From Nitrospirota bacterium (GTDB lineage Bacteria; Nitrospirota; Nitrospiria; SBBL01; JAADHI01), in contig JAJDBU010000048.1 of the NCBI GenBank assembly GCA_029261195.1, forward strand, positions 5,814 through 69,813: DNA of 64,000 nucleotides. The letters run 5' to 3'. The position numbers and the translations under genes were made by a program. The notes below the pieces were generated by a model. It was given only the letters and a program-made list of their open reading frames with translations, did not search any database and was not told the origin of the DNA. Below, one piece after another: positions 5,951 to 19,895 of the stretch (its first letter is position 1; every line of letters starts with the position of its first letter).

Positions 5951-7402
5951 TTGTCAAATATGGACTACTCAAAGTCATTTTCAGTCGTCGACAGCAAGGC
6001 ATTACTTTTTGAGGGGCAGGCCCTGATGGCCGACCCCATTCACGGTTATATTCCATTCACCGTCTCCTTCGGGAGCCATAAGGAATCGAGCGAAAAAGAT
6101 CTCATCGATTCAAAGTGGATGCAGCGGCTTCGATACATCAATCAATTGCAATCCGCACGCTGGGTTTATCCCTCCGCCGAGCATTCCCGTTTTGTGCATT
6201 CTCTGGGAGCGATGCATGTGGCAGGGCGTTTTGCCAAACATCTCTACCCTTCCTTAAAAGAGGTTGTCCCCAATGTACCCTCTCCGGCATTTATAGAGGC
6301 GCTTCTCCGTGTTTCCGTTTTGCTGCACGACATCGGACATGGCCCCTTTTGTCACTTTTTTGATCACAATTTTCTTAATACCTTTCACCTGAGCCACGAA
6401 AAACTCGGGCAGGAGATTATCCGCAGGGAACTGGGTGTACTGATCAAAGGGATTAGAAGAAGTCCGGGTGGAGCCTTTGCCCCTGGCGAAAGCCTTGATC
6501 CGGAACAGGTCGCCTTTTTAATACATAAAGATCCGGATTATAAAACGCCCCTTGAATATCCGAGATGGCTTGTGATGCTTAAACCGCTTTTTTCAGGCAT
6601 ATTTACGGCCGACAACCTCGACTACGTCCTTCGAGATGCCTTTATGTGCGGGGTTTCAACCGGCCCCATTGATCTTGACCGCCTGATGCACTACAGCTTT
6701 TTTTCCAAAAAAGGACTGACGCTGCATCAAGCGGGGCTTCCGGCATTGACCATGTTTTTAAACGCCCGTGCCTACCTTTATTTTAATGTCTATTATCATC
6801 GCACCACGCGCGCGCTCGACACCCACATGAAAGACATTTTTCGAGCGACGCTTAAAGAAATTTTTCCTTACAACCCACTTGAACGTCTACAGGCCTATGC
6901 CGATTTAACGGATTGGTCGCTTCTGATCAAGGTGAAATCGTGGAAAGCTTCCCGCTCAGCATCACGCCGGGCGCTTTTTAAAGAATGGGAAAAAATCTGG
7001 GGCCGGGATGTAAAGTGGAAGATGGCCTGTGATACGACATTATCGACAAGCGGCTCTGCGGGAAATTCCCGCAGGGTGAAAACCGGGACAGAGCGGATGA
7101 TACACGCAAACCTTCTAAAAAAACGGATGCAGGCCTTGTTGCCGGAGACCTTGAAAGATCTCTCCTTTCGAGTGGATCTTGCCAGCAAAGATCAACGACC
7201 GGACAATCCAATGGAAATGGGTGAACGACAGATCTACGTCTTCAATCCTTCCACCGGGTCCATTTCAAAAGAAGCCTTAAGCGAATTTATCGATGTGGTC
7301 CCGGCGCGTGTCGTCCGCTGCCGAATCTACGCCTTGGACCACGAACACGACGCACTTTTGTCGGAACTTGCCGAAAAGGCGCTGACGGAGATCGGGAGGT
7401 GA
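5951..7402 (+). CDS. HD-domain phosphohydrolase, SAMHD1/dGTPase-like dNTP triphosphohydrolase family
   Basis: 483 aa. Motifs HSRFVHSLGAMHVA, LLHDIGHGPFCHFFD and DNLDYVLRDAFMCG, i.e. the H..HD..D metal motif plus the DxxDYxxRD motif. Confidence 0.8.
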   Translation: MSNMDYSKSFSVVDSKALLFEGQALMADPIHGYIPFTVSFGSHKESSEKDLIDSKWMQRLRYINQLQSARWVYPSAEHSRFVHSLGAMHVAGRFAKHLYPSLKEVVPNVPSPAFIEALLRVSVLLHDIGHGPFCHFFDHNFLNTFHLSHEKLGQEIIRRELGVLIKGIRRSPGGAFAPGESLDPEQVAFLIHKDPDYKTPLEYPRWLVMLKPLFSGIFTADNLDYVLRDAFMCGVSTGPIDLDRLMHYSFFSKKGLTLHQAGLPALTMFLNARAYLYFNVYYHRTTRALDTHMKDIFRATLKEIFPYNPLERLQAYADLTDWSLLIKVKSWKASRSASRRALFKEWEKIWGRDVKWKMACDTTLSTSGSAGNSRRVKTGTERMIHANLLKKRMQALLPETLKDLSFRVDLASKDQRPDNPMEMGERQIYVFNPSTGSISKEALSEFIDVVPARVVRCRIYALDHEHDALLSELAEKALTEIGR

Positions 7403-7407
7403 AGTAT

Positions 7408-8076
7408 TCATCGCATCCTTTCCACAAATCGTGTAATGGCCTCCAGGGGTAAACCGACAGCGGCCAGATAGTCTCCCTTCAATTCCTGAATAAATTGACG
7501 TCCCTCACCTTGCACGGCGTAGGCGCCGGCTTTATCTAGCGGTTCTCCGGTCGCAACGTAGTCCGAAATTTCGCTGTCTGTCATCGACTTCATTTTGACT
7601 TCAATCTTGCAAATCGAGTGTTCCGATCTATCCTGCAAGGTATCAATCATAAAAACTGCCGTCCAGATGCAGTGAGAGCGTCCCTGTAAACCCTGCAAAA
7701 TCTGCTTTGCCTCTTCCGGATTTTTTGGTTTACCGATTTTTTGTTGGTCGCATTCAATGAGGGTGTCGCTCCCGATGACAATGGCATTTTTAAAATCTTG
7801 GGCATTTTTAAAATCTTGGGCCACGGATCGCGCCTTGCCCTCTGCGAAATGGATTGCTTCTTCTTTTGGGGATAATGCCGGATTTGAGATTTCTTCAAAA
7901 CGGGGCGACACAACGCGAAAAGGGATTTGAAGCCGGGAAAGAATCTCCCTGCGTCTCGGAGAGTTTGAGGCCAGAATCAATTCAGTGGAGGTGAGGTTTG
8001 GCTCTTTTTTTAGATCCTGCATTCCGATTTCAGTCCAGGAACGGTCAGCCTGCTTCCTTTCAACTCCGCCACCCAA
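7408..8076 (-). CDS. maf: Maf-like nucleoside triphosphate pyrophosphatase (likely true start MQDLKK at 8022)
   Basis: LILASNSPRRREIL, GSDT, GKP and AGAYAVQG motifs. Contains an in-frame QDFKNA duplication. Confidence 0.85.
   Translation of the reverse strand: MGGGVERKQADRSWTEIGMQDLKKEPNLTSTELILASNSPRRREILSRLQIPFRVVSPRFEEISNPALSPKEEAIHFAEGKARSVAQDFKNAQDFKNAIVIGSDTLIECDQQKIGKPKNPEEAKQILQGLQGRSHCIWTAVFMIDTLQDRSEHSICKIEVKMKSMTDSEISDYVATGEPLDKAGAYAVQGEGRQFIQELKGDYLAAVGLPLEAITRFVERMR
7783..7818. repeat. Perfect 18-bp tandem duplication (GGCATTTTTAAAATCTTG x2) inside maf
   Basis: Read directly: 7783-7800 is identical to 7801-7818. It encodes QDFKNA twice on the minus strand. Confidence 0.95.
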
Positions 8077-8172
8077 TCCTCATGGTCATCAAGATGATCC
8101 CCCCTGCCCCCCTTAATAAGGGGGGCGCTTTTATAACAGAATGCTTTTGTAGCAGGCCGGTCCCTAAAGCCC

Positions 8173-8360
8173 GTTTAAATTTCCCTGAATTTCGACCTTT
8201 CCCAACAAGCAACACCCTCCTCTTCCACCCCCCTTATCAAGGGGGGATCGCGTTCCAACCCTCTATCAGCGAGGCATCCTTTCCGACCCTCCTGCAAAGG
8301 GCGAACTCATACAGACCGTTTCAAGTTTCAATCCTCTATCAGCGAGGCATCCTTTCCGAC
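8173..8360 (-). CRISPR. Mini CRISPR array: 3 repeats (36, 36 and ~34 nt) and 2 spacers (37 and 45 nt)
   Basis: Repeat A is 8325-8360. Repeat B is 8252-8287 and has 2 mismatches. Repeat C is 8173-8206 and is strongly degenerate. The minus-strand consensus GTCGGAAAGGATGCCTCGCTGATAGAGGATTGAAAC ends in the canonical ATTGAAAC crRNA 5' tag. An AT-rich leader and the cmr genes lie upstream on the same strand. Confidence 0.75.
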
Positions 8361-8742
8361 AGCACCCCTTTTTTCTCTTTTAGAATCAATGGATTACAAG
8401 GGCCAAAATACAAACCCCCAGTTATCCACAGATAAGTTATTCCTTTGGGAGATACCGCCAAGCACTCAATATCACTTTTCATCATATTATTCAAGACTTT
8501 ATACAAAAGTACAAAGCTATGCCTAAAATCACCTCCTTTCAGAATTCTTCTAAATTTCAGAATTAGAGTGATATATAAATATTTTAGTTTTTCAAACCTC
8601 CATTACTACAAAATATCGCTACCCACAACTCAATATCTCTAATAACGCTGCTAAAACGGGTTGTGATCAAAAATGACAACATCTCCAGTAACAGGTGATG
8701 TTTAAATTAGCTTAACCGCCTTTCACATAAAATAATAAGGAA
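8361..8742 (-). promoter_or_regulatory. Putative CRISPR leader (AT-rich, non-coding)
   Basis: About 380 nt of AT-rich sequence between the effector stop (8743) and the intact first repeat. Repeat degeneracy increases away from this side. Confidence 0.45.
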
Positions 8743-9492
8743 TTACATTAAAAGAGGAGTGTACATTTCTCCGGCACTGGCCTCCTTGCCTTGTAAATCC
8801 TTGCGATATTCCATAAAAACCACATTGTCCATGACATGCACGAGGTTCGCCGCCAGCAAGGGGAGCACGTTGTCCGGAAGTCCACAAAACAGGTAGACAC
8901 GACGAACACCGTTTTCAGTATGGATTCGCAATAGCAAAGCAACGACATTCTTCACGTAGCCCATCAACTGCTCGTTTGTGTCAAAGGTTTCATCCTTTAG
9001 CCAAATCGGACGGGCTTTCATGTTCATTGCTTTCATATAGTCGAGTACATTCAGCAGATACTTCTCCTGACTTACAAGGATGAGTGCTACAGTATCCAAT
9101 CTCTCTTCTGAAGTAATAGGAGTGATCTGTTTATGGGAAAACTCGCATTGGGCGTCTCCTCCGATGAGTGGGGTACGGCGTTCCTGGGCTTCGTTGTTGA
9201 ATATGGTGCCGTAACGCGCATTGTGACAAAAAAGGCGGGCGGATGTGCTCCGGTTGAACAGACGACAACCGAGGAAAAAGAAAAACGCCAATTGGGCATT
9301 CCCGACAATGTGGATCTCTCTTGGGTCTGGACCCGCCAAATTCCCCATGGCCGTAGACAAGGCGGATTGCATTGTTGAGCAAAGCATCCGCCATTTGTCG
9401 CCATACAGGGTCTCATGATCGCTACGAATACCAAGGCAGGGGCGTTCAAGTTGGACAAATTTTCTGGAATGCCTAGAGGTTCCTCGCTCCGT
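8743..9492 (-). CDS. SAVED/CARF-like sensor module (frame open 9492-8743; first ATG at 9387); apparent C-terminal half of a frameshifted TIR-sensor effector
   Basis: Two Rossmann-like lobes share the pattern hydrophobic strand, Gly/Pro, helix: REIHIVGNAQLAFFFFLGCRL and RRVYLFCGLPDNVLPLLAANLV. This is as expected for a two-lobed SAVED domain. The frame is open upstream of its ATG and overlaps the TIR ORF tail. Confidence 0.5.
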   Translation of the reverse strand, partial: TERGTSRHSRKFVQLERPCLGIRSDHETLYGDKWRMLCSTMQSALSTAMGNLAGPDPREIHIVGNAQLAFFFFLGCRLFNRSTSARLFCHNARYGTIFNNEAQERRTPLIGGDAQCEFSHKQITPITSEERLDTVALILVSQEKYLLNVLDYMKAMNMKARPIWLKDETFDTNEQLMGYVKNVVALLLRIHTENGVRRVYLFCGLPDNVLPLLAANLVHVMDNVVFMEYRKDLQGKEASAGEMYTPLLM

Positions 9493-9992
9493 TTACCGGC
9501 AGTGCCCCGCTGATCTATATATATAATGATCGTTCGCTGACTTGGAATTTCTAATGTCGTGTAGACCCGGCGTGCCAGTTCATCGGCAATATGTACCGCA
9601 TCGGAAGACTCAATCCCAAGTCGGGTAACCCGCGTACCGCGGTGATCTAGCCATCTACTACGCAAAAGAGTGTGGGATTTGACCAGTTTATAACGGTCGC
9701 CGAGGTATATCGGGACGATGATTTCTTTACCCCATTTTTTTTCCTTTTCCAGGGCAATCTCAAGCTCATCCTGAACCCATGGAGACTTTATTGCCTGTTC
9801 TGAAAGAAATACGGTGAAGGTTGTTTGACGTGCGATGGCCTCTTCCAATACTTTGTCCATGGCCGCACCCGCCACAAAGTCGTTCTTGTCCAACCACGCA
9901 ATAATCCCTCGCCGCCCCAATTCATGTGCTACGGTTTCAACAAGGGCTTTGTTAGCAGAGTTGTGGGACAAAAAAGTCGAGGCGTATTTCAT
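9087..9992 (-). CDS. TIR-domain protein (only the first ~185 aa look like genuine protein; the rest is an out-of-frame tail)
   Basis: The N-terminus FLSHNSANKALVETVAHELGRRGIIAWLDKNDFVAG...FTVFLSEQAIKSPWVQDELEIAL matches the TIR layout, including the conserved Glu after W. The ATG overlaps the cmr6 stop (ATGA at 9989-9992). The tail from about aa 190 is Cys/Pro/Trp-rich nonsense. Confidence 0.75.
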   Translation of the reverse strand: MKYASTFLSHNSANKALVETVAHELGRRGIIAWLDKNDFVAGAAMDKVLEEAIARQTTFTVFLSEQAIKSPWVQDELEIALEKEKKWGKEIIVPIYLGDRYKLVKSHTLLRSRWLDHRGTRVTRLGIESSDAVHIADELARRVYTTLEIPSQRTIIIYIDQRGTAGKRSEEPLGIPENLSNLNAPALVFVAIMRPCMATNGGCFAQQCNPPCLRPWGIWRVQTQERSTLSGMPNWRFSFSSVVVCSTGAHPPAFFVTMRVTAPYSTTKPRNAVPHSSEETPNASFPINRSLLLLQKRDWIL

Positions 9993-11506: not shown

Positions 11507-12430
11507 CTATGCTCCTTTCGCCTCAACAATTTCAACAGCGCACCAGCCCATACCCACGGTTTCGTTACCGCCCAGTTGCAGATAGGGTTTATTGTCTCCC
11601 GTGAACAAGTCTAGTACGCATTTCCTTATACCCTTAGCGTCAAGGGCTTTATCCTGCTCGTCCTTTTTCGCCTTGCGCGAATTATTCGCAAGCAAGGGCA
11701 CATAAAGCAGGGTTTCGGGCGGGAGCGTTTCTTCGTACCACAACGCGCCATCTTGGGTCGTTTTGGTATCCGAATTCAACGCAATGTGCGCATTAACCGG
11801 GACGGCCGCCTGAGTCAGGTGGGTAAACATCGTGTCGGAAACAATGACCAATCGTTTTTTTAATTCGTCCTCGGCCTCGGTTCTCTCCATCAATTTGGCG
11901 AGATCCGTGGCGCACTTTTCGAGCTCACCTTTTTTCTCAATAAGCGTAAATCGATACTCCTCCAGAAAAAGATAACCTGTTCCCTCTGAGACGATGGCTT
12001 CGTCATCTTTTAAATCGGGTTTCGGTGGGTCAAAGCTGAAGTCATTTCCCAAGTCCATGCGTTTTGCATCCCGTTTTAATCTTTCCAATGCCCCGCTGCA
12101 AGTCACCCATTTGAAGGTGCCGGTCAAGGAACGCACCGGCAAAAGCAGCAGCCTGGCATCTCCGGCGGCGATGGCTCCGGCATTGGCGTCGGCGTTCTTT
12201 GTCTCCGGACCAAATGTAACCAAAACCTCGTCACGATCCTGATCTTTGCCATACACCTCCTCCGCTTTATCCCGCAAAGCACCTTTGACGGCGGAGCCGA
12301 ACACACAGGGCCAGCCATTGTGACCTTCGCGCTGAATGGGTAGGTCTACTCCGCTGACGGAACTACCCGCTCCGGCATGTAGACTGCTTTCTGTCAACAG
12401 GCCCAACAGGGCCGTTGCTTGGTTTTTCAT
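11507..12430 (-). CDS. cmr4: Type III-B backbone RAMP/target RNase Cmr4
   Basis: LTESSLHAGAGSSVSGVDLPIQREGHNGWPCVFGSAVKGALR, with the catalytic Asp context VDLPIQRE present. C-terminal G-rich GGNETVGMGW. Confidence 0.9.
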   Translation of the reverse strand: MKNQATALLGLLTESSLHAGAGSSVSGVDLPIQREGHNGWPCVFGSAVKGALRDKAEEVYGKDQDRDEVLVTFGPETKNADANAGAIAAGDARLLLLPVRSLTGTFKWVTCSGALERLKRDAKRMDLGNDFSFDPPKPDLKDDEAIVSEGTGYLFLEEYRFTLIEKKGELEKCATDLAKLMERTEAEDELKKRLVIVSDTMFTHLTQAAVPVNAHIALNSDTKTTQDGALWYEETLPPETLLYVPLLANNSRKAKKDEQDKALDAKGIRKCVLDLFTGDNKPYLQLGGNETVGMGWCAVEIVEAKGA

Positions 12431-13620
12431 ACTTTTCCTCCTAAATAGTCAGTGGGGAATTCGTTTGAGTTCCACAATCCACAAGCGATGACACCACGTC
12501 CGAACTTCCGATCTTCTCCGATGTATTTACCCTGCAAAACATCAATGGCCTTAGCGATGTTACCGTCATCTACCGCACAGTAATAGCTACTACCGGACGG
12601 AATTAAACTTTGCACATCGCGCGGTTTGCGTTTGAGCATGTTCCATCCTCCCTCGCGCTGCGCTTTTCCGAGCACGGCGGCATGTAAGGTAAGAGCAATA
12701 CCCTCAATGACCCCCTGCCAAACATGCACGCCCTTAAGCTCCTTTAACTTGAAGCCTTCTGGTAGCCAATTGCCCTCTTCGTTCTTAAATCGTGCCGGGC
12801 TCAGCAGGATCAGAATCAATCCCTGTGTTGCTGTTTTGTTTACTTCCGGTTTTGCGGGTGGTTTCGGAAGGCCTAGAGAAGAAATTGCCGCAATGCGTCC
12901 TTCGCCTCCTAAGCGTACGATGCGGTTCTCGATTTCCACTCCATTCAGACCGGAAATATCGACCTCGATAGCCAGACCGGATTTCGGGCGAATATGGCAG
13001 GTTTGATAGAGCAAACTGTTTTCTACTGTGCGTGTGCTGTTGTCTCGTGCAATGCCTAAGCGTGGTTCCCTGCTGAGCAGAGTTTGCTCCGTGTGTAGTT
13101 CTTTAATACCCGGCAGACTACCCATTAATATTTTTTCAAGTCCACTTCGGGTAAGCCATGCACCTTTGATTGACCTGTAGCCTTTCGCTCTTTCAGGTAT
13201 TTCAGGCAAATAAACCCTTCCAATATGCGTTTCCATGGCAGTACCGATACGCAGTCGGGCTAAAAGGTTCTGGCCTTTTTCTTCTCGGTGCATTAGAAAA
13301 AGAGGTAAGGGATAAAGGCGTTCACCATTTAGTGACAAGCAAAGTCCATCAAGGCTGAGATTGCCTAAATTATCGGCATAGCCAATCATTTCACGCAGCT
13401 TTCGTCCATCAGGCAGTGCATAGTCTACATTGTCTCGAAATTGATTCCAGTCCGCACCCAGTGCATCGCCGATGGCCGTGCGTAAAGCCCCCAGTACGGT
13501 ACGTGGCGACGGAGGGAAAACGCTGATCAGTTCTGTACCCCCTATGGTGTCGAAGGGGCGTGACTCACGGAAGAACAAAGTATCAAGCGGTGTCAGACAT
13601 AATCTTTTGATTGTGCTCAT
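12427..13620 (-). CDS. cmr3: Type III-B Cmr3 (start MSTIKRL at 13620; track ORF extends to 13734)
   Basis: The LCLTPLDTLFFRESRPFD motif. The ATG overlaps the cas10 stop (ATGA at 13617-13620). Confidence 0.85.
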   Translation of the reverse strand: MSTIKRLCLTPLDTLFFRESRPFDTIGGTELISVFPPSPRTVLGALRTAIGDALGADWNQFRDNVDYALPDGRKLREMIGYADNLGNLSLDGLCLSLNGERLYPLPLFLMHREEKGQNLLARLRIGTAMETHIGRVYLPEIPERAKGYRSIKGAWLTRSGLEKILMGSLPGIKELHTEQTLLSREPRLGIARDNSTRTVENSLLYQTCHIRPKSGLAIEVDISGLNGVEIENRIVRLGGEGRIAAISSLGLPKPPAKPEVNKTATQGLILILLSPARFKNEEGNWLPEGFKLKELKGVHVWQGVIEGIALTLHAAVLGKAQREGGWNMLKRKPRDVQSLIPSGSSYYCAVDDGNIAKAIDVLQGKYIGEDRKFGRGVIACGLWNSNEFPTDYLGGKV

Positions 13621-15494
13621 CGTTCCACCCCTTTCTTTGCCAAAAAACGTACTAGCAGCGCACCATCCGCTTCGAGATGTTTTGATTCCCATGCATCTAT
13701 TGTTTTTGTTTTGTCTCGTACACGGGGACGGCATTGTTCAAGAAGCTGCTTCACAATCACCCTTGCCTCTTCCATTGACTTCACCATTGCCATGAGCGAG
13801 ATGGCTTGCTCATCTTTAAGAACGGGTTCCAACAATTCCTTCTCCTTGTCTTTGCCGGGATTAAGCAGATCAAAGCGTTCTCTGATTCGGTAGAAAAATT
13901 TGCTGGAGAAATGTCCTTGTTTCCCTTCGGATTGATCATTTTTCTGAAAGTCTGCTGCCAGTCTCTCTACAACGACGTTGCAATCTTCAAGGGCAATCTG
14001 CCAGGGCTGAGCCCACTCCACTGTCATGCCACCCGGCTTCCAGACACGGCAGGCAAGCGCATCACGCCCCCGCCCCTCCTTCGCCACCTTGTCGAGCAAA
14101 TCGTGTGCATCCAGTAAAACCTTGCCCAGCGGCATCTTGGCGTGGGCATATTCAATGGCGGCAGAAATAGAAGTGATAATGGCTGAGGTGGCAAAACAGC
14201 CCATGTAATGTCTGCGTAAAGCCGCAGCACAATTCAGTGCATCTTCCAGGGGCAGCAACACCAGCACGTCATCTCCGCCAGCGTAGATCAGAAAGCCGTT
14301 GTGCTTATTCACAATGCTAGGAATCTCCTTGGTAAACTCCGCCAACCCGGTAGCGATCGCCTGCTGTTTATCGGGCACACGCATTTGAAGCCCCAACTCG
14401 TCACCATCCATTAGCAGTACGGTATAGAACGGAGAAGGCGGATCAAGCTTGGCTTCACCGCGAACTTTCTTAAGTTTGCTCAGAACCTCTGTTGCCTGCT
14501 TCTCTTGTTTGTCCCAAAGATTCTTATTCTCCAGCATGGCATCGAAGAAGACCGTACCATCCAGCGCTTTCCATTGTTTGTGACCGTCCGCATCCTGGAC
14601 ACAACGGATGTTGGATTTCCACTCACCATAGTTTCCGGTCAGCTTATGAGCAGCGTTGTGGAAGTCCCACAATCCCGTAGACACCTCTTCGTTTTCGTTT
14701 GCCTTTTCAATCAATTGCGCTAACCAGGGTGCAACAGCCATGTAATGCACCGAGGGGACGCCACTAGGTAGTTCCCAGCCATTGACCATCCAATTCCCCG
14801 GCATTTTTTCGCTGACGTCTTTGAAGCAGCGCGAGAAGCGCCGCTTTACGAAGGCGATTGCACAGAGTTTTTCACCGGGGCGCAGGTCTGTTTTTATGCC
14901 ATCTTGACCTAACTCACGTACATTGTCCCAAAAACTATTTCCTTTCTTACCGGGACGCTCGGTTCCTGAAAGTTCCTGCCAACCGTCCATCATCATGCAC
15001 TTCACACCCGGTTCGTCCGGTGGCAGGTGGCTGCGCATATTTTTCAAGCGGTCCAGGGTATTGGTCGCATCTTTATTTTTCACTATCGCCCACTCAATAT
15101 CCCAAAATGCGGAAATCTGTCGATTCCAAATTATTTTGGTTTTATTATTCTCAAGCCTGTGAAGGTCATGCTCCCAAACCTTTTCGCTTAATACCGTCCA
15201 TGCCATTTTCACGGCATCCACAACTTCTGTGGCTTCAAATTTATCATCGACTTCAGCCATAAACCGGTTTGGGATGCTGCCTTGTTTCGGACCTTTGCCG
15301 CCTTTTCGAATGGCCTCCATGAATTTTGCATCCGGTTTCGGAAAAACAACATTTCCGCCCTGTTGTTGAACTGCCCTCATGGCAACTGCTGAAAGCCACG
15401 ACAAGATAAACGAACCCGCCCAAAAATCCCGCGTCCGCCGCGCCTGCGAAACAAAGCCCTGAACAGGGCCTATGGTGAAGTGGAAGTATTTCAT
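13617..15494 (-). CDS. cas10: Cas10/Cmr2, short form without N-terminal HD domain; cyclase GGDD motif intact
   Basis: 625 aa. It starts directly with MKYFHFTIGPVQGFVSQARRTRDFWAGSFILSWL. Palm motifs are VLLMDGDELG and FLIYAGGDDVLVLLP. No H..HD..D segment precedes them. Confidence 0.9.
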   Translation of the reverse strand: MKYFHFTIGPVQGFVSQARRTRDFWAGSFILSWLSAVAMRAVQQQGGNVVFPKPDAKFMEAIRKGGKGPKQGSIPNRFMAEVDDKFEATEVVDAVKMAWTVLSEKVWEHDLHRLENNKTKIIWNRQISAFWDIEWAIVKNKDATNTLDRLKNMRSHLPPDEPGVKCMMMDGWQELSGTERPGKKGNSFWDNVRELGQDGIKTDLRPGEKLCAIAFVKRRFSRCFKDVSEKMPGNWMVNGWELPSGVPSVHYMAVAPWLAQLIEKANENEEVSTGLWDFHNAAHKLTGNYGEWKSNIRCVQDADGHKQWKALDGTVFFDAMLENKNLWDKQEKQATEVLSKLKKVRGEAKLDPPSPFYTVLLMDGDELGLQMRVPDKQQAIATGLAEFTKEIPSIVNKHNGFLIYAGGDDVLVLLPLEDALNCAAALRRHYMGCFATSAIITSISAAIEYAHAKMPLGKVLLDAHDLLDKVAKEGRGRDALACRVWKPGGMTVEWAQPWQIALEDCNVVVERLAADFQKNDQSEGKQGHFSSKFFYRIRERFDLLNPGKDKEKELLEPVLKDEQAISLMAMVKSMEEARVIVKQLLEQCRPRVRDKTKTIDAWESKHLEADGALLVRFLAKKGVER

Positions 15495-16801
15495 GGCAAC
15501 ACCTCCTTCCTATCGGGGAAGCGATCTTTCTTGGTTTCAGGAATTCCAATCTTGCCATCGAGAAAATTGGTGATGACCTTCCATGCATTAATATTCAGGT
15601 CAACATGGTTGCCGCCGGCATTGATCTTCTCCCCGTTTGGCAGGAAGGGTGATTTCAGGAAGACGCTGACACCGATATAGTTCTTATCACTTAAGCGGTG
15701 AACGTGAAAGAACAACGGGCTGGCACGGCGTTCATGCGTTGCTGCATTCACTTTGTTTTCATTGCTGTCGTAGTTGTGAGGGAGTCCAAACACAATTCGT
15801 TCGGGATGAAAATTCGGGTATTTTGACCGGAATGGTGGCACCTTTCTGAACCAGTGATGGTCATCTTTGAATCTCATTTCGGATTTCTTGCCACTGGGAA
15901 GAATATTACTTCTTCTTGGGTTTGTTTTCGTCTTTCCCCAACTGCGGTAGTCCAGCATTCTCAGTCCAAACTCGTCCAACACCTTGTAAGGCGAACTTTC
16001 CGAGAGCAGGTAATCTACGCGACTCTCTTTCGAGAAGGCCGAGTATTCTGGTTGAGGCACGTCAGAAAGATTGAGAAGTAACTGCTTAACCTCACTTTGG
16101 TATTTTTCTTGGGTAGTGGGGGCAGTCCATGTTTCTTTTTCCTCTTTTTTATCACAAACCATTTTTTCCAAGGCGATACTACCCATACCATGACGGGAAC
16201 GGCTGCCTAAACCACCCAACAGTCCAAACATTTTGAGTGCAGCTAGAACAGATTCGTCAACTTGCTTGCGAAAAGCCAGAGTAACAGTGAAGATTTGATT
16301 TTCATTCAGACAACCGCGCTCCAGCTGACCAGCCTTCCTCTTTATTTCTCCAGTATTTCTATTTACACTTGTGAACGCCGTTATCAAACCGTAACCAAGA
16401 TAACGGGCAGCGGCCAGATGATTTTCATCCGGCATTCTATTCCCATGTTGGTTTGTCTTTTGTCTGGTCGGCTTGAAGCTCGTGTGGACAGTATCTTCCT
16501 CTGTTTTTTTGGGCTCATTATGCCTAACGGTCATCAAAAATGTCCCTTGCCCACCAAGCGGTTTGCCTTTTTTTGTTTTCGCCGAAAGACCAAACAGCCG
16601 CCCCTCTTCCTTGTGAAGTGCCTTCAGCGCATTAGTCTCATCTTGTTCTTGTTTATAAAACCGCCCCCAGTTCAAGGCCCGCCACCAAAACCGCAAGGCC
16701 CCTTTCACCGAAGGAGGCCGTATCCCATCGTCTGGTGTTTGATCCGCACCGCCAATGAACATCGGCGTCACAATTCGAAATGTCGCTTCCAGCTTTTCCA
16801 T
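15491..16801 (-). CDS. cmr1: Type III-B RAMP protein Cmr1
   Basis: FRIVTPMFIGGADQTPDDGIRPPSVKGALRFWWRAL, plus GGLGSRSRHGMGS as the G-rich loop. Its stop overlaps the cas10 start. Confidence 0.85.
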   Translation of the reverse strand: MEKLEATFRIVTPMFIGGADQTPDDGIRPPSVKGALRFWWRALNWGRFYKQEQDETNALKALHKEEGRLFGLSAKTKKGKPLGGQGTFLMTVRHNEPKKTEEDTVHTSFKPTRQKTNQHGNRMPDENHLAAARYLGYGLITAFTSVNRNTGEIKRKAGQLERGCLNENQIFTVTLAFRKQVDESVLAALKMFGLLGGLGSRSRHGMGSIALEKMVCDKKEEKETWTAPTTQEKYQSEVKQLLLNLSDVPQPEYSAFSKESRVDYLLSESSPYKVLDEFGLRMLDYRSWGKTKTNPRRSNILPSGKKSEMRFKDDHHWFRKVPPFRSKYPNFHPERIVFGLPHNYDSNENKVNAATHERRASPLFFHVHRLSDKNYIGVSVFLKSPFLPNGEKINAGGNHVDLNINAWKVITNFLDGKIGIPETKKDRFPDRKEVLP

Positions 16802-16883
16802 CCTTTCCTCCCTTCTTGATGCATATATACGATTTAAGCTATATTATATATACTCAATTAAAACAGGATCAGGAGACCCCCTC

Positions 16884-17123
16884 ATGAAAACCCTCATTGA
16901 TATCAACGAAACACTCCTTGAAAAAGCGATGGCCCTCTCCCAGACCAAAACGAAGAAGGAAACAGTCCATCGGGCCTTGGAGGCCTTCGTCAAACTCCGG
17001 CAACGGGAGCGCTTAAAGGAGATGGCCGGAAGCGGGGCAATCGAATGGCGTCTTGACGACCTGAAGGCTGCAAGGCACCGAAGAGAAAAAACGCAGACCC
17101 GACTCATGAAAGACGGGCAATGA
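16884..17123 (+). CDS. vapB: VapB-family antitoxin (DUF2191-like)
   Basis: 79 aa, MKTLIDINETLLEKAMALSQTKTKKETVHRALEAFV. AGGAG lies 8 nt upstream. The stop overlaps the vapC ATG (ATGA at 17120-17123). Confidence 0.65.
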   Translation: MKTLIDINETLLEKAMALSQTKTKKETVHRALEAFVKLRQRERLKEMAGSGAIEWRLDDLKAARHRREKTQTRLMKDGQ

Positions 17124-17527
17124 ATCAAAGGCAGGTTTTTGTGGATACCAGCGCATGGATCTGTTTCTTCGCTCGAAAAGGCTTTGCGGAGATCAAGCAG
17201 GCCATTGGCACGCTCCTCGACGAAAACCGGGTGGCGGTCGCGGGGCCGGTTGTCATTGAGTTGCTTCAAGGATGCCGAAATGTGCAGAAAAAAACGACTA
17301 TCGAAGGCTGTCTTCAGGGGCTTCAATGGCTTCCGATCAAGGATCATCACTGGTCTTATGCTGCGCAACTGGCCTTCGACCTTCGCAGAAAAGGAATTAC
17401 AGTTTCCGCGATGGATGTGCTTATCGCAAGTGTCACCATCGACACCGATTGCCTCCTCCTTCACCGGGATCGTGACTATGACTTCATCAGCGAGCACTTC
17501 CCCGAACTGAAGCATTACAAGTTTTAG
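17120..17527 (+). CDS. vapC: PIN-domain toxin VapC
   Basis: 135 aa. VFVDTSAWICFF (the first PIN acidic residue), followed by the later D/E positions and HRDRDYDF at the C-terminus. Confidence 0.8.
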   Translation: MNQRQVFVDTSAWICFFARKGFAEIKQAIGTLLDENRVAVAGPVVIELLQGCRNVQKKTTIEGCLQGLQWLPIKDHHWSYAAQLAFDLRRKGITVSAMDVLIASVTIDTDCLLLHRDRDYDFISEHFPELKHYKF

Positions 17528-17537
17528 CAATCCGCGC

Positions 17538-18440
17538 TCATTCCGGTTTTGCATTGACCTCATACCGCCCCATCCCAAAGGTCGCTCCTTTTCCGACATG
17601 CACCCCTTCCCCCAACTTCAAAAATGGGAGAAAAGACGTTAAATCGCCTTCAAAGACAATCTCCCCGACAAACCCACCTTGCGGGATGCTCTGTCCTTGC
17701 CGCCGGGAATAGCGCTCTTTGTCAACCCAGCGCAAGTTTCTAGAGACGACGCGAATTTCTTCTATATGAGAAGGAATCTTTAATGGAACAATCTCTTCCT
17801 GGTTTGTCCCATGAAAGTACCTCAGGTTTTCGATCCGTCGAAGGAGGGTCCGAAACAAGAGGGCAAAGTCGATCGCTTCGCTTGGCCGCCCCTTTACAAC
17901 AATCCGGGTTGGCGTCAGAAAGCGAACTGTGATCTTGCGACATTCCGTGACCGGTTTTTGATCAAGCTGTAGGGGCTGGACTTCCTTGATTTTAAAATTT
18001 CCTCTCCCCATGCCAATGCCGCGTTCCCCTAGTACCTCAAAAGCCCGAATGAAATACGGGAGGTAGGAGACGGCCTTTCCAATCAAAATCAGACCAATCG
18101 TCATCTTCTCCCCCGGTTCATAGGTCAGCTTTTCCCCCAGCGGCGGTTCAATGACGAAAGGACGCGGAACGGCTTTTCCTTTTGCCATGCGTGTCTTATT
18201 TATTGGATGTGGCGTCTCAAAAATATAGGGATAGGCACAGACCCGGAAGAGTGTGCATTCTGGGCATGGGGTGCGAGGGATGTTGCAGCAGACCGCTTTC
18301 AAGGCATTGCCGAAACCCCCTCGAAGCGTTGAGCCGCTATTTTCAGAAAGGGAGATCGCAGTGATGGGCAGCAAACTAAGCTGATATGAAGAAACAGAGA
18401 GTAAGGTCTCTGTTTCTAGAACAAGATTTTCTCCGATCAT
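17538..18440 (-). CDS. cas6: Cas6-family pre-crRNA endoribonuclease (RAMP)
   Basis: 300 aa. STLRGGFGNALK, a Cys-rich CPECTLFRVCAYPYIFE segment and the C-terminal G-rich loop HVGKGATFGMGRY. Confidence 0.8.
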   Translation of the reverse strand: MIGENLVLETETLLSVSSYQLSLLPITAISLSENSGSTLRGGFGNALKAVCCNIPRTPCPECTLFRVCAYPYIFETPHPINKTRMAKGKAVPRPFVIEPPLGEKLTYEPGEKMTIGLILIGKAVSYLPYFIRAFEVLGERGIGMGRGNFKIKEVQPLQLDQKPVTECRKITVRFLTPTRIVVKGRPSEAIDFALLFRTLLRRIENLRYFHGTNQEEIVPLKIPSHIEEIRVVSRNLRWVDKERYSRRQGQSIPQGGFVGEIVFEGDLTSFLPFLKLGEGVHVGKGATFGMGRYEVNAKPE

Positions 18441-18689: not shown

Positions 18690-19895
18690 TCAGTAGGGAT
18701 ATCGGACATCACTTGTTTCCTTTGTTTGCAGTGTCACTTTAGAAATCGGGTCGGCTAGAAAATCCTTAATCAAATGCTCTACCTCTAAAGTATCATTGAC
18801 CCGAACCATGAGCGCGCGCAGGGCTTTCGCTCCCTCAAACCCACGACAATAGGAAGCGAGATGTTTTCTCATGCCGGTGAAATAGATCTTCCCGTTCATC
18901 GATTCAAAAAGACGGGCATGTTGAAGGGCAACAGCAAAACGTTCTTGATGGCTGATTGGTTTTTCCGCAATACTCTGGATATCGACTTCGCTGTCGCAGT
19001 CTTCTCCACCGAATTTTCCCTGCTGTTTTAATAAAGCCCGCGTCATTTCTTTGCGATGAAAGATCCAGGGATTACCCATTGCGGCCCGACCGATTAAAAC
19101 GCCATCAACCCCGGTTTCGCAAACACGCTTAAAGATGTCCTGTTGAGAATGCAAGTCGCCGTTTCCCAGGATGAGGGTATCTGAGCCTTGAGCCGCCTCA
19201 ACCGCTTCAGCAATTTTTCCCCAGTCGGCCTCGCCGCGATAAGCCTGTTTCAGGGTACGGCCATGAATTGCAATTGCTACAGGCTCGGCCGTAAGAAGTT
19301 CAGCAATCCATTCCTTCACAACCACCTGAGTCACACCGATGCGGGTTTTGACAGACACAGGAATCGGCCTTTTTATCTCGGATCGGCGGGATTTGTTTTG
19401 TCGCTCAATGTCGGGAAACCAATCCGCCACTTCCGGACAAATTTTAACAATTGAAAGAGGCTCTCCATTGGCCCAATGATCAATCCCTCGCCTCGTTGCT
19501 TCGACGATGGCCTTTGCACGTGCAGCGTCATTAATCAAGGCCGCCCCCGCACCCATGCCACTGACTTTTTTGCTCGGGCAGCCCATGTTGATATCAATGC
19601 CGTCAAAACCCAATTCGCAAACCAACTGGGCAACATGAAAAAAAGGCTCGGGCCTCGGGCCGTAGAGTTGGGCAATTACGGGAGATTCACTTGCATGAAA
19701 GGCAAGTCCCAATAGGGCATTTCTTGCCCCGTGGCAGATGCCGTCTACACTTAAAAATTCAGTCATGATGAGATCCGGCCGCCCGTGAATCGCCATCATG
19801 CGCCTGAAACAGGGATCCGTCACGCCATCCATCGGCGACAGCCCGATAATGGGTTTTTCAAGTTGATGCCAAAAATGTTTGCCTGTTTTAAGCAA
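18690..19895 (-). CDS. dus: tRNA-dihydrouridine synthase family protein with C-terminal extension
   Basis: GLSPMDGVTDPCFRRMM, DINMGCP and a HGRT-type motif (IAIHGRTLKQAYRGEADW). Confidence 0.85.
   Translation of the reverse strand: MLKTGKHFWHQLEKPIIGLSPMDGVTDPCFRRMMAIHGRPDLIMTEFLSVDGICHGARNALLGLAFHASESPVIAQLYGPRPEPFFHVAQLVCELGFDGIDINMGCPSKKVSGMGAGAALINDAARAKAIVEATRRGIDHWANGEPLSIVKICPEVADWFPDIERQNKSRRSEIKRPIPVSVKTRIGVTQVVVKEWIAELLTAEPVAIAIHGRTLKQAYRGEADWGKIAEAVEAAQGSDTLILGNGDLHSQQDIFKRVCETGVDGVLIGRAAMGNPWIFHRKEMTRALLKQQGKFGGEDCDSEVDIQSIAEKPISHQERFAVALQHARLFESMNGKIYFTGMRKHLASYCRGFEGAKALRALMVRVNDTLEVEHLIKDFLADPISKVTLQTKETSDVRYPY

Follow-up and report, generated by a model that had tools for sequence, protein, structure and literature searches.

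A TIR-SAVED effector gene at the end of a type III-B cmr operon is split by a 19-bp deletion and is probably a recent pseudogene

A type III-B cmr operon in the window, ie the whole stretch of 64,000 nucleotides that was analysed, ends with a gene that is divided between two reading frames of the minus strand by a gap of 19 nucleotides relative to its orthologues. The gene is most likely a recently inactivated pseudogene of a CRISPR-associated TIR-SAVED effector, and the deletion a genuine one. Its parts are given below.

9426-9992, minus strand: 5' part of the probable pseudogene in the original frame, codons 1-189, ending ...NAPALVF
8743-9435, minus strand: 3' part of the probable pseudogene in the -1 frame, the rest of SAVED (orthologue residues approximately 193-422)
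9087-9425, minus strand: out-of-frame tail of the 301-aa ORF, approximately 112-113 codons, rich in Cys, Pro and Trp
9426-9436, minus strand: deletion junction, its position ambiguous inside this range (in the MAFFT alignment the gap falls between 9429 and 9428)
9439-9442, minus strand: C4 run without an indel; GCCCCTGCC in the window and GCCCCCGCC in the orthologue L001 correspond base for base

Mechanical translation of frame 0 of the minus strand gave an ORF of 301 aa, open from an ATG at 9992 to 9087, which reads as a TIR-type protein until ...NAPALVF (IPENLSNLNAPALVF) and beyond that point as a Cys/Pro/Trp-rich tail. The frame offset from it by -1 is open from 9492 to a stop at 8743 and reads LGIRSDHETLYGDKW... 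and ...LGIRSDHETLYGDKWRMLCSTMQ.... Residues 3-170 of the 301-aa ORF correspond to positions 13-177 of the PADLOC SAVED_TIR profile (PDLC02012), and residues 7-198 of the 214-aa downstream ORF to positions 210-381. Since the two ORFs are consecutive stretches of one profile, a chance pair of ORFs is excluded. The claim of the initial annotation that the effector is split over two frames is therefore borne out, and its description of the frame limits and of the switch to Cys/Pro/Trp-rich sequence proved accurate on re-translation. The 5' part comprises the TIR domain (approximately residues 1-146, with the conserved Glu76) and the first two SAVED strands, as judged from Pfam TIR_2, PADLOC, an alignment with 12 homologues and the secondary structure of the orthologue model; the 3' part retains the original stop codon at 8743-8745. 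The tail of the 301-aa ORF aligned with no homologue in the homologue alignment. The corresponding +1 frame is likewise free of stops in the intact L001 (codons 157-308), so the length of the tail is a pre-existing property and no sign of selection; selection on a long open nonsense tail was rejected on this ground.

The DNA around the junction was aligned using MAFFT with that of the two close orthologues, L001 (from a JGI metagenome) and L002 (from a Logan assembly). Compared to both, 19 consecutive nucleotides are missing from the window at about 9436-9426. L001 reads GCCTTGGTG-TTCCGCCCCGACCTTGATT-TTCGT, and the window at the same place reads GCCTTGGTA-TTCGT. The junction sequence in the window is GCCTTGGTATTCGTAGC, and an allele with about 19 additional bases would contain GCCTTGGTnTTCCGnCCnGACCTTGnTnTTCGT. 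The gap (18 + 1) gives the net offset of -1 and lies 3-13 nt downstream of the C4 run. The bases lost are the conserved F-RPD-LG codons and one base more; the repaired gene agrees exactly with L001 in length (1269 nt) and has no other stops or indels. In the orthologues an imperfect direct repeat, CCTTGGTnTTC ... CCTTGnTnTTC, lies on either side of the deleted unit. The repeat copies in L001, CCTTGGTGTTC and CCTTGATTTTC, are identical at 9 of 11 positions with a period of 19 nt, and the TTC is perfect at both edges. The copy retained in the window, CCTTGGTATTC, encodes (A)LVF in frame 0 of the TIR part and LGI(R) in frame -1 of the SAVED part. A loss bounded by repeats in this way is most likely the signature of a slipped-strand or microhomology-mediated deletion, the repeat having been taken from orthologues only 75-81% identical to the window gene and not from its immediate ancestor. 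A pattern search for both alleles in metagenome_contigs, using GCCCCNGCCTTGGTN{1,22}TCGTAGCGAT, returned only an unrelated chance match (L003).

The initial annotation had placed an apparent 1-nt deletion near the C4 run. The alignment contains no indel there, with the 19-nt gap found instead, and the codons of the run are GCC CCT GCC in the window and GCC CCC GCC in L001, ie a synonymous change. It had also been proposed that one extra base in the run would fuse the two frames. That base does give a fusion of 416 aa, but the ancestral protein cannot be restored by it, because the product would still be six residues short, R190 (invariant) and P191 (nearly so) among them.

A search of 5.8 billion proteins with the fused sequence as query produced 43 matches. 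In 40 of the 42 non-self homologues at least 95% of the query was covered by a single polypeptide of 405-712 aa, and the sole split entry among the matches was P0011, the window's own 301-aa ORF. The nearest homologues, P0001 (422 aa, 81% identical) and P0002 (417 aa, 75%), are both uninterrupted. A comparison with orthologous loci had been suggested in the initial annotation; the relatives have an uninterrupted ORF, and an arrangement of two separate proteins was seen in none. At the break itself, F189 and R190 are invariant across 35 homologues and P191 is conserved in at least 90% of them. The related-locus search of genome_contigs with an 8-sequence alignment found five loci, four of which carry full-length relatives (Nitrotoga BS and M5, Blastocatellia and Aminicenantes); the fifth, from Acidobacteriota (L008), gave only a 25-residue N-terminal match. 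The distant homologues in Nitrotoga and in the Blastocatellia MAG are immediately preceded by Csm-type type III genes and have arrays in the vicinity. Precomputed Pfam matches place extra C-terminal domains in the relatives P0030, P0031, P0038, P0021 and P0036, these being a CHAT protease (PF12770; proteins of 626-635 aa), an FGE-sulfatase (PF03781; 712 aa) or PF19957.

The fused sequence matched Pfam TIR_2 with an E-value of 7e-20 (72 bits, cut-off 28), and Pfam SAVED weakly at 19.6 bits, below the cut-off of 26.2. PADLOC SAVED_TIR covered P0001 from one end to the other (E 3e-36). The AlphaFold2 model of this protein, made with 35 homologues, had a pLDDT of 92.4 and a pTM of 0.91, and the best PDB match to the whole chain in Foldseek was 7qqk_A (E 6e-13, TM 0.64/0.62, 15% identity), followed by Cap5, Cap4 and SAVED-CHAT. 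The N-terminal TIR and the C-terminal SAVED fold of the CRISPR TIR-SAVED effectors are thus both found, but in the window copy they are not joined in one uninterrupted polypeptide; being split by a deletion, the copy is to be regarded as a pseudogene of the family and not as a working member. Glu76, within the motif SxWVxDEL, is invariant in a 13-sequence alignment, and we assume, following the TIR literature, that it is the catalytic-type glutamate. The break corresponds in the model to strand 185-189 and the loop that follows, downstream of the first SAVED strand at 154-160, where D160 and R162 are invariant and Q161 and G163 nearly so. On this model the break is inside the SAVED sensor and not at the boundary between TIR and SAVED. 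No ring-nuclease domain was detected in the TIR-SAVED family studied here, which ends after SAVED.

In the characterised TIR-SAVED effector, cA3 bound by SAVED joins the monomers in a superhelical, head-to-tail filament, and neighbouring TIR domains in it complete between them a composite active site for NAD+ degradation (10.1101/2022.05.04.490601; PMC11229360). The Microbacterium ketosireducens protein (7QQK; Hogrel et al., 10.1101/2022.05.04.490601) shares with the present family an N-terminal TIR, a C-terminal SAVED and a length of approximately 420-430 aa, and by analogy a filament glued by cyclic oligoadenylate, with a composite TIR NADase site, would be expected here as well. It differs in that the identity is 15%, below what a PDB sequence or profile search detects, and in that the window copy is frameshifted. 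Seven CRISPR-associated TIR-SAVED loci were catalogued by Hoikkala et al. 2024 (PMC11229360), whose survey makes no mention of frameshifted or pseudogenised TIR-SAVED copies; beside those loci, the homologues described here follow Cmr genes (the window and L001) or Csm-type genes (L004 and L006). In sequence searches solved relatives were found for the TIR part alone, and the closest solved TIR is that of Cat1 (CARF-TIR, 9MUD; PMC12162218), with E-values of 4e-10 in the single-sequence and 5e-17 in the profile search, and Cat1 is also an NAD+-degrading effector of type III CRISPR systems. Its sensor, however, is CARF and not SAVED, and only the TIR aligns (residues approximately 5-120). An identity as a Cat1-type CARF-TIR was rejected, as the sensor matches SAVED folds and the alignment is confined to the TIR region. 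TSR1 (TIR-SAVED-Crn4; Sun et al. 2026, 10.64898/2026.09.16.751991) is likewise a CRISPR-associated TIR-SAVED protein, activated in its case by cA3, but has an additional Crn4 ring-nuclease domain which makes it dimeric and self-limiting.

The effector gene is the last of the type III-B operon, its ATG overlapping the cmr6 stop codon (ATGA) as it does in L001. The locus contains the following features.

17538-18440, minus strand: cas6 (Pfam CRISPR_Cas6, E 2e-20; TIGR01877)
15491-16801, minus strand: cmr1 (TIGR01894, E 6e-11; Pfam RAMPs)
13617-15494, minus strand: cas10/cmr2 (Cmr2_N and palm2, E 9e-32), 625 aa, short
12427-13734, minus strand: cmr3, intact (Pfam Cas_Cmr3, E 4e-61), 92% identity to a partial L001 orthologue
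11507-12430, minus strand: cmr4, intact (TIGR02580, E 1e-62), 77% identity to L001
11082-11504, minus strand: cmr5, intact (TIGR01881, E 5e-24), 72% identity to L001
9989-11143, minus strand: cmr6, intact (TIGR01898, E 5e-32)
8361-8742, minus strand: leader-like AT-rich region of approximately 380 nt between the effector gene and the array, collinear with L001
8252-8360, minus strand: minimal CRISPR array of two 36-nt repeats and one 37-nt spacer

All the Cmr proteins compared are full-length relative to their L001 orthologues, and by blastn positions 1-4967 of L001 are collinear with 13181-8252 of the window at 82% nucleotide identity, over a span that begins in cmr3 and reaches past the leader to the array. 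Residues 12-384 of Cmr6 align with residues 1-372 of the L001 protein (77% identity), and the true start of cmr6 is probably Met12, at about 11110. Adjacent to the effector gene there is accordingly a type III complex with a Cas10 in which the GGDD cyclase motif is intact (YAGGDDVLV). The domain searches detected no HD domain in Cas10/Cmr2, which suggests that any collateral activity of the locus would have depended on cyclic oligoadenylate signalling. The interval from cas6 to the array yielded no further CARF or SAVED gene. A 251-aa ORF on the minus strand at 16844-17599 was considered as a second effector and rejected as a spurious antisense ORF over a vapBC-like pair. Situated between cas6 and cmr1 on the other strand (16884-17527, plus), this pair consists of a VapC PIN toxin (17120-17527, plus; NF047959, E 2e-29, above cut-off) with an antitoxin-like small ORF upstream of it (16884-17123, plus), which has no family match.

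The repeats of the array are at 8360-8325 and 8287-8252, the distal one with two mismatches, and the spacer is at 8324-8288. Nothing in viral_contigs matched the spacer exactly, and it occurs only once in the window. The L001 array belongs to the same repeat family and has at least four repeats before the contig ends. The 'decaying array' of the initial annotation stands insofar as the array is minimal (two repeats and one spacer, compared to at least four repeats in L001), but decay does not extend to cas6 and cmr1-6, all of which are intact. Past the terminal repeat there are two G/C-rich palindromes 121 nt apart, at 8107-8125 (CCCCCCTTAATAAGGGGGG) and 8228-8246 (CCCCCCTTATCAAGGGGGG), the first of which scores as a terminator-like hairpin; the two may mark the point at which the array was truncated. 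Scanning the window against Rfam and for tRNAs gave nothing, and promoter and terminator scans around the effector gene remained at background level.

An intact gene would encode a protein of approximately 422 aa as the last product of the operon. By analogy with the characterised effectors, the Cmr complex would recognise foreign RNA and Cas10 would then make cyclic oligoadenylate, to be bound by the C-terminal SAVED domain; binding would lead to head-to-tail assembly, which would bring the TIR domains together for degradation of NAD+ and thereby cause abortive infection or growth arrest. A 19-bp deletion between two short direct repeats 19 nt apart would have taken out the F-RPD-LG codons and one base, such that translation from the TIR start would leave the SAVED frame after residue 189 and run into a nonsense tail of 112 residues, while the remaining SAVED part would lack a convincing start of its own. 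In the downstream frame the first ATG, at 9387, is without an obvious ribosome-binding site, and a product begun there would omit the first SAVED strands. With the TIR uncoupled from a bisected SAVED, the CRISPR signalling arm is, we infer, most likely dead, and crRNA-guided RNA cleavage by Cmr may persist. A truncated TIR product is probably still made, as Glu76 and the translational coupling to cmr6 are kept. Of the three explanations offered in the initial annotation, a genuine inactivating mutation is the one that fits best.

The age of the event was considered from substitution rates. Against L001, the window gene had a dN/dS of 0.18 in the TIR half and of 0.28 in the SAVED half, the latter translated in its own frame; between the two intact orthologues the values were 0.15 and 0.21, respectively. 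With L002 as outgroup the window branch was not accelerated (dN 0.145 vs 0.173). Since there is no other lesion and dN/dS is still low, the frameshift is either recent or not real in the organism. The second possibility, that the split is an assembly or consensus artefact or a minority strain variant and that the organism carries an intact gene of 1269 nt, seems to us improbable but deserves some weight: the deletion is the only lesion, and a downstream half under purifying selection is what an intact gene would show. The neighbouring genes, however, are without frame errors; the window is approximately 89% coding and no other split gene was noticed in it. A clean loss of 19 nt bounded by microhomology is also atypical of homopolymer or base-calling errors, and errors in long reads are mostly homopolymer indels of 1-2 nt. 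Assemblers usually work with k-mers longer than these direct repeats (at most 11 nt), whose collapse is therefore not expected. The in-frame 18-nt tandem duplication in the adjacent maf gene, as another slippage-type event, was counted against an artefact too, as was the listing of the same 301-aa product from both NCBI and Logan, two sources that are possibly not independent. Exact look-ups of P0011, Cmr4 and Cmr5 for independent contigs had none on record. The deletion is presumably present in the organism.

We consider it very unlikely that the 301-aa product is expressed and acts independently of cyclic oligoadenylate, or that deleted and intact alleles form a polymorphism which switches off a costly abortive-infection arm and keeps Cmr targeting. 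Very unlikely, too, is a functional split, in which the two parts are joined by programmed -1 frameshifting or in which the fragments act separately or reassemble. A heptamer of the X_XXY_YYZ type does lie in frame 0 within the overlap at 9492-9429 (A_AAT_TTG, 9462-9456), and the TIR ORF, still coupled to cmr6, keeps Glu76. The uninterrupted L001 has this heptamer too, however, which makes it ordinary coding sequence. The two-ORF arrangement occurs in no homologue, all orthologues being single-frame, and R190 is unrecoverable by a frameshift: the products would be without strand 185-189, the invariant R190 or both. The break moreover bisects the SAVED fold, the downstream ATG has neither an obvious ribosome-binding site nor the first SAVED strands behind it, and the nonsense tail is open in the intact orthologue too. 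A homopolymer event at the C4 run, whether a 1-nt error or a phase-variable slipped-strand switch, has next to no likelihood and is ruled out as the cause by a C4 region without an indel: although the run is only 3-13 nt from the junction and one added C mechanically yields the 416-aa fusion, the region matches both orthologues base for base apart from the synonymous CCC to CCT change, the product of the insertion would be without R190, the lesion is in non-repetitive sequence whose loss from between the repeats is irreversible, and known contingency tracts are far longer than four C's.

Given an inactivating deletion, the gene should be annotated as a single TIR-SAVED pseudogene carrying a 19-bp deletion, and not as a stand-alone TIR protein followed by a hypothetical protein; nor should the locus be flagged as a candidate phase-variable switch. 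The finding is an ordinary one and its value lies mainly in correct annotation. It would nevertheless offer a clean natural case of a type III-B locus that has lost its only detected cyclic oligoadenylate effector and has its RNA-targeting complex intact, and it agrees with the view that toxic effectors of abortive infection are easily lost. The relatives with an intact gene make up a TIR-SAVED clade embedded in CRISPR loci, with a Cat1-like TIR and a SAVED only 15% identical to the 7QQK protein, and could be of interest to groups working on cyclic oligoadenylate effectors.

Three genes flanking the locus were also observed. Immediately upstream of cas6 is a gene for a DusB-like tRNA-dihydrouridine synthase (18690-19895, minus), whose fit to its family model is confined to residues 13-136 and, separately, 178-380; this suggests an insertion of approximately 40 residues. 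On the other side, 5951-7402 (plus) encodes a protein of 483 aa with HD and HD_assoc_2 domains and a weak match to the PADLOC dGTPase (E 7e-5), and could be a defence gene of the dNTP-hydrolase type beside the CRISPR locus. Next to it, maf (7408-8076, minus) contains a perfect 18-nt tandem duplication at 7783-7821 (GGCATTTTTAAAATCTTG x2.2). The duplication keeps the frame and is seen in the Maf-family protein as a AQDFKNAQDFKNA repeat; it is a slippage-type change and lies approximately 1.6 kb from the 19-nt deletion.
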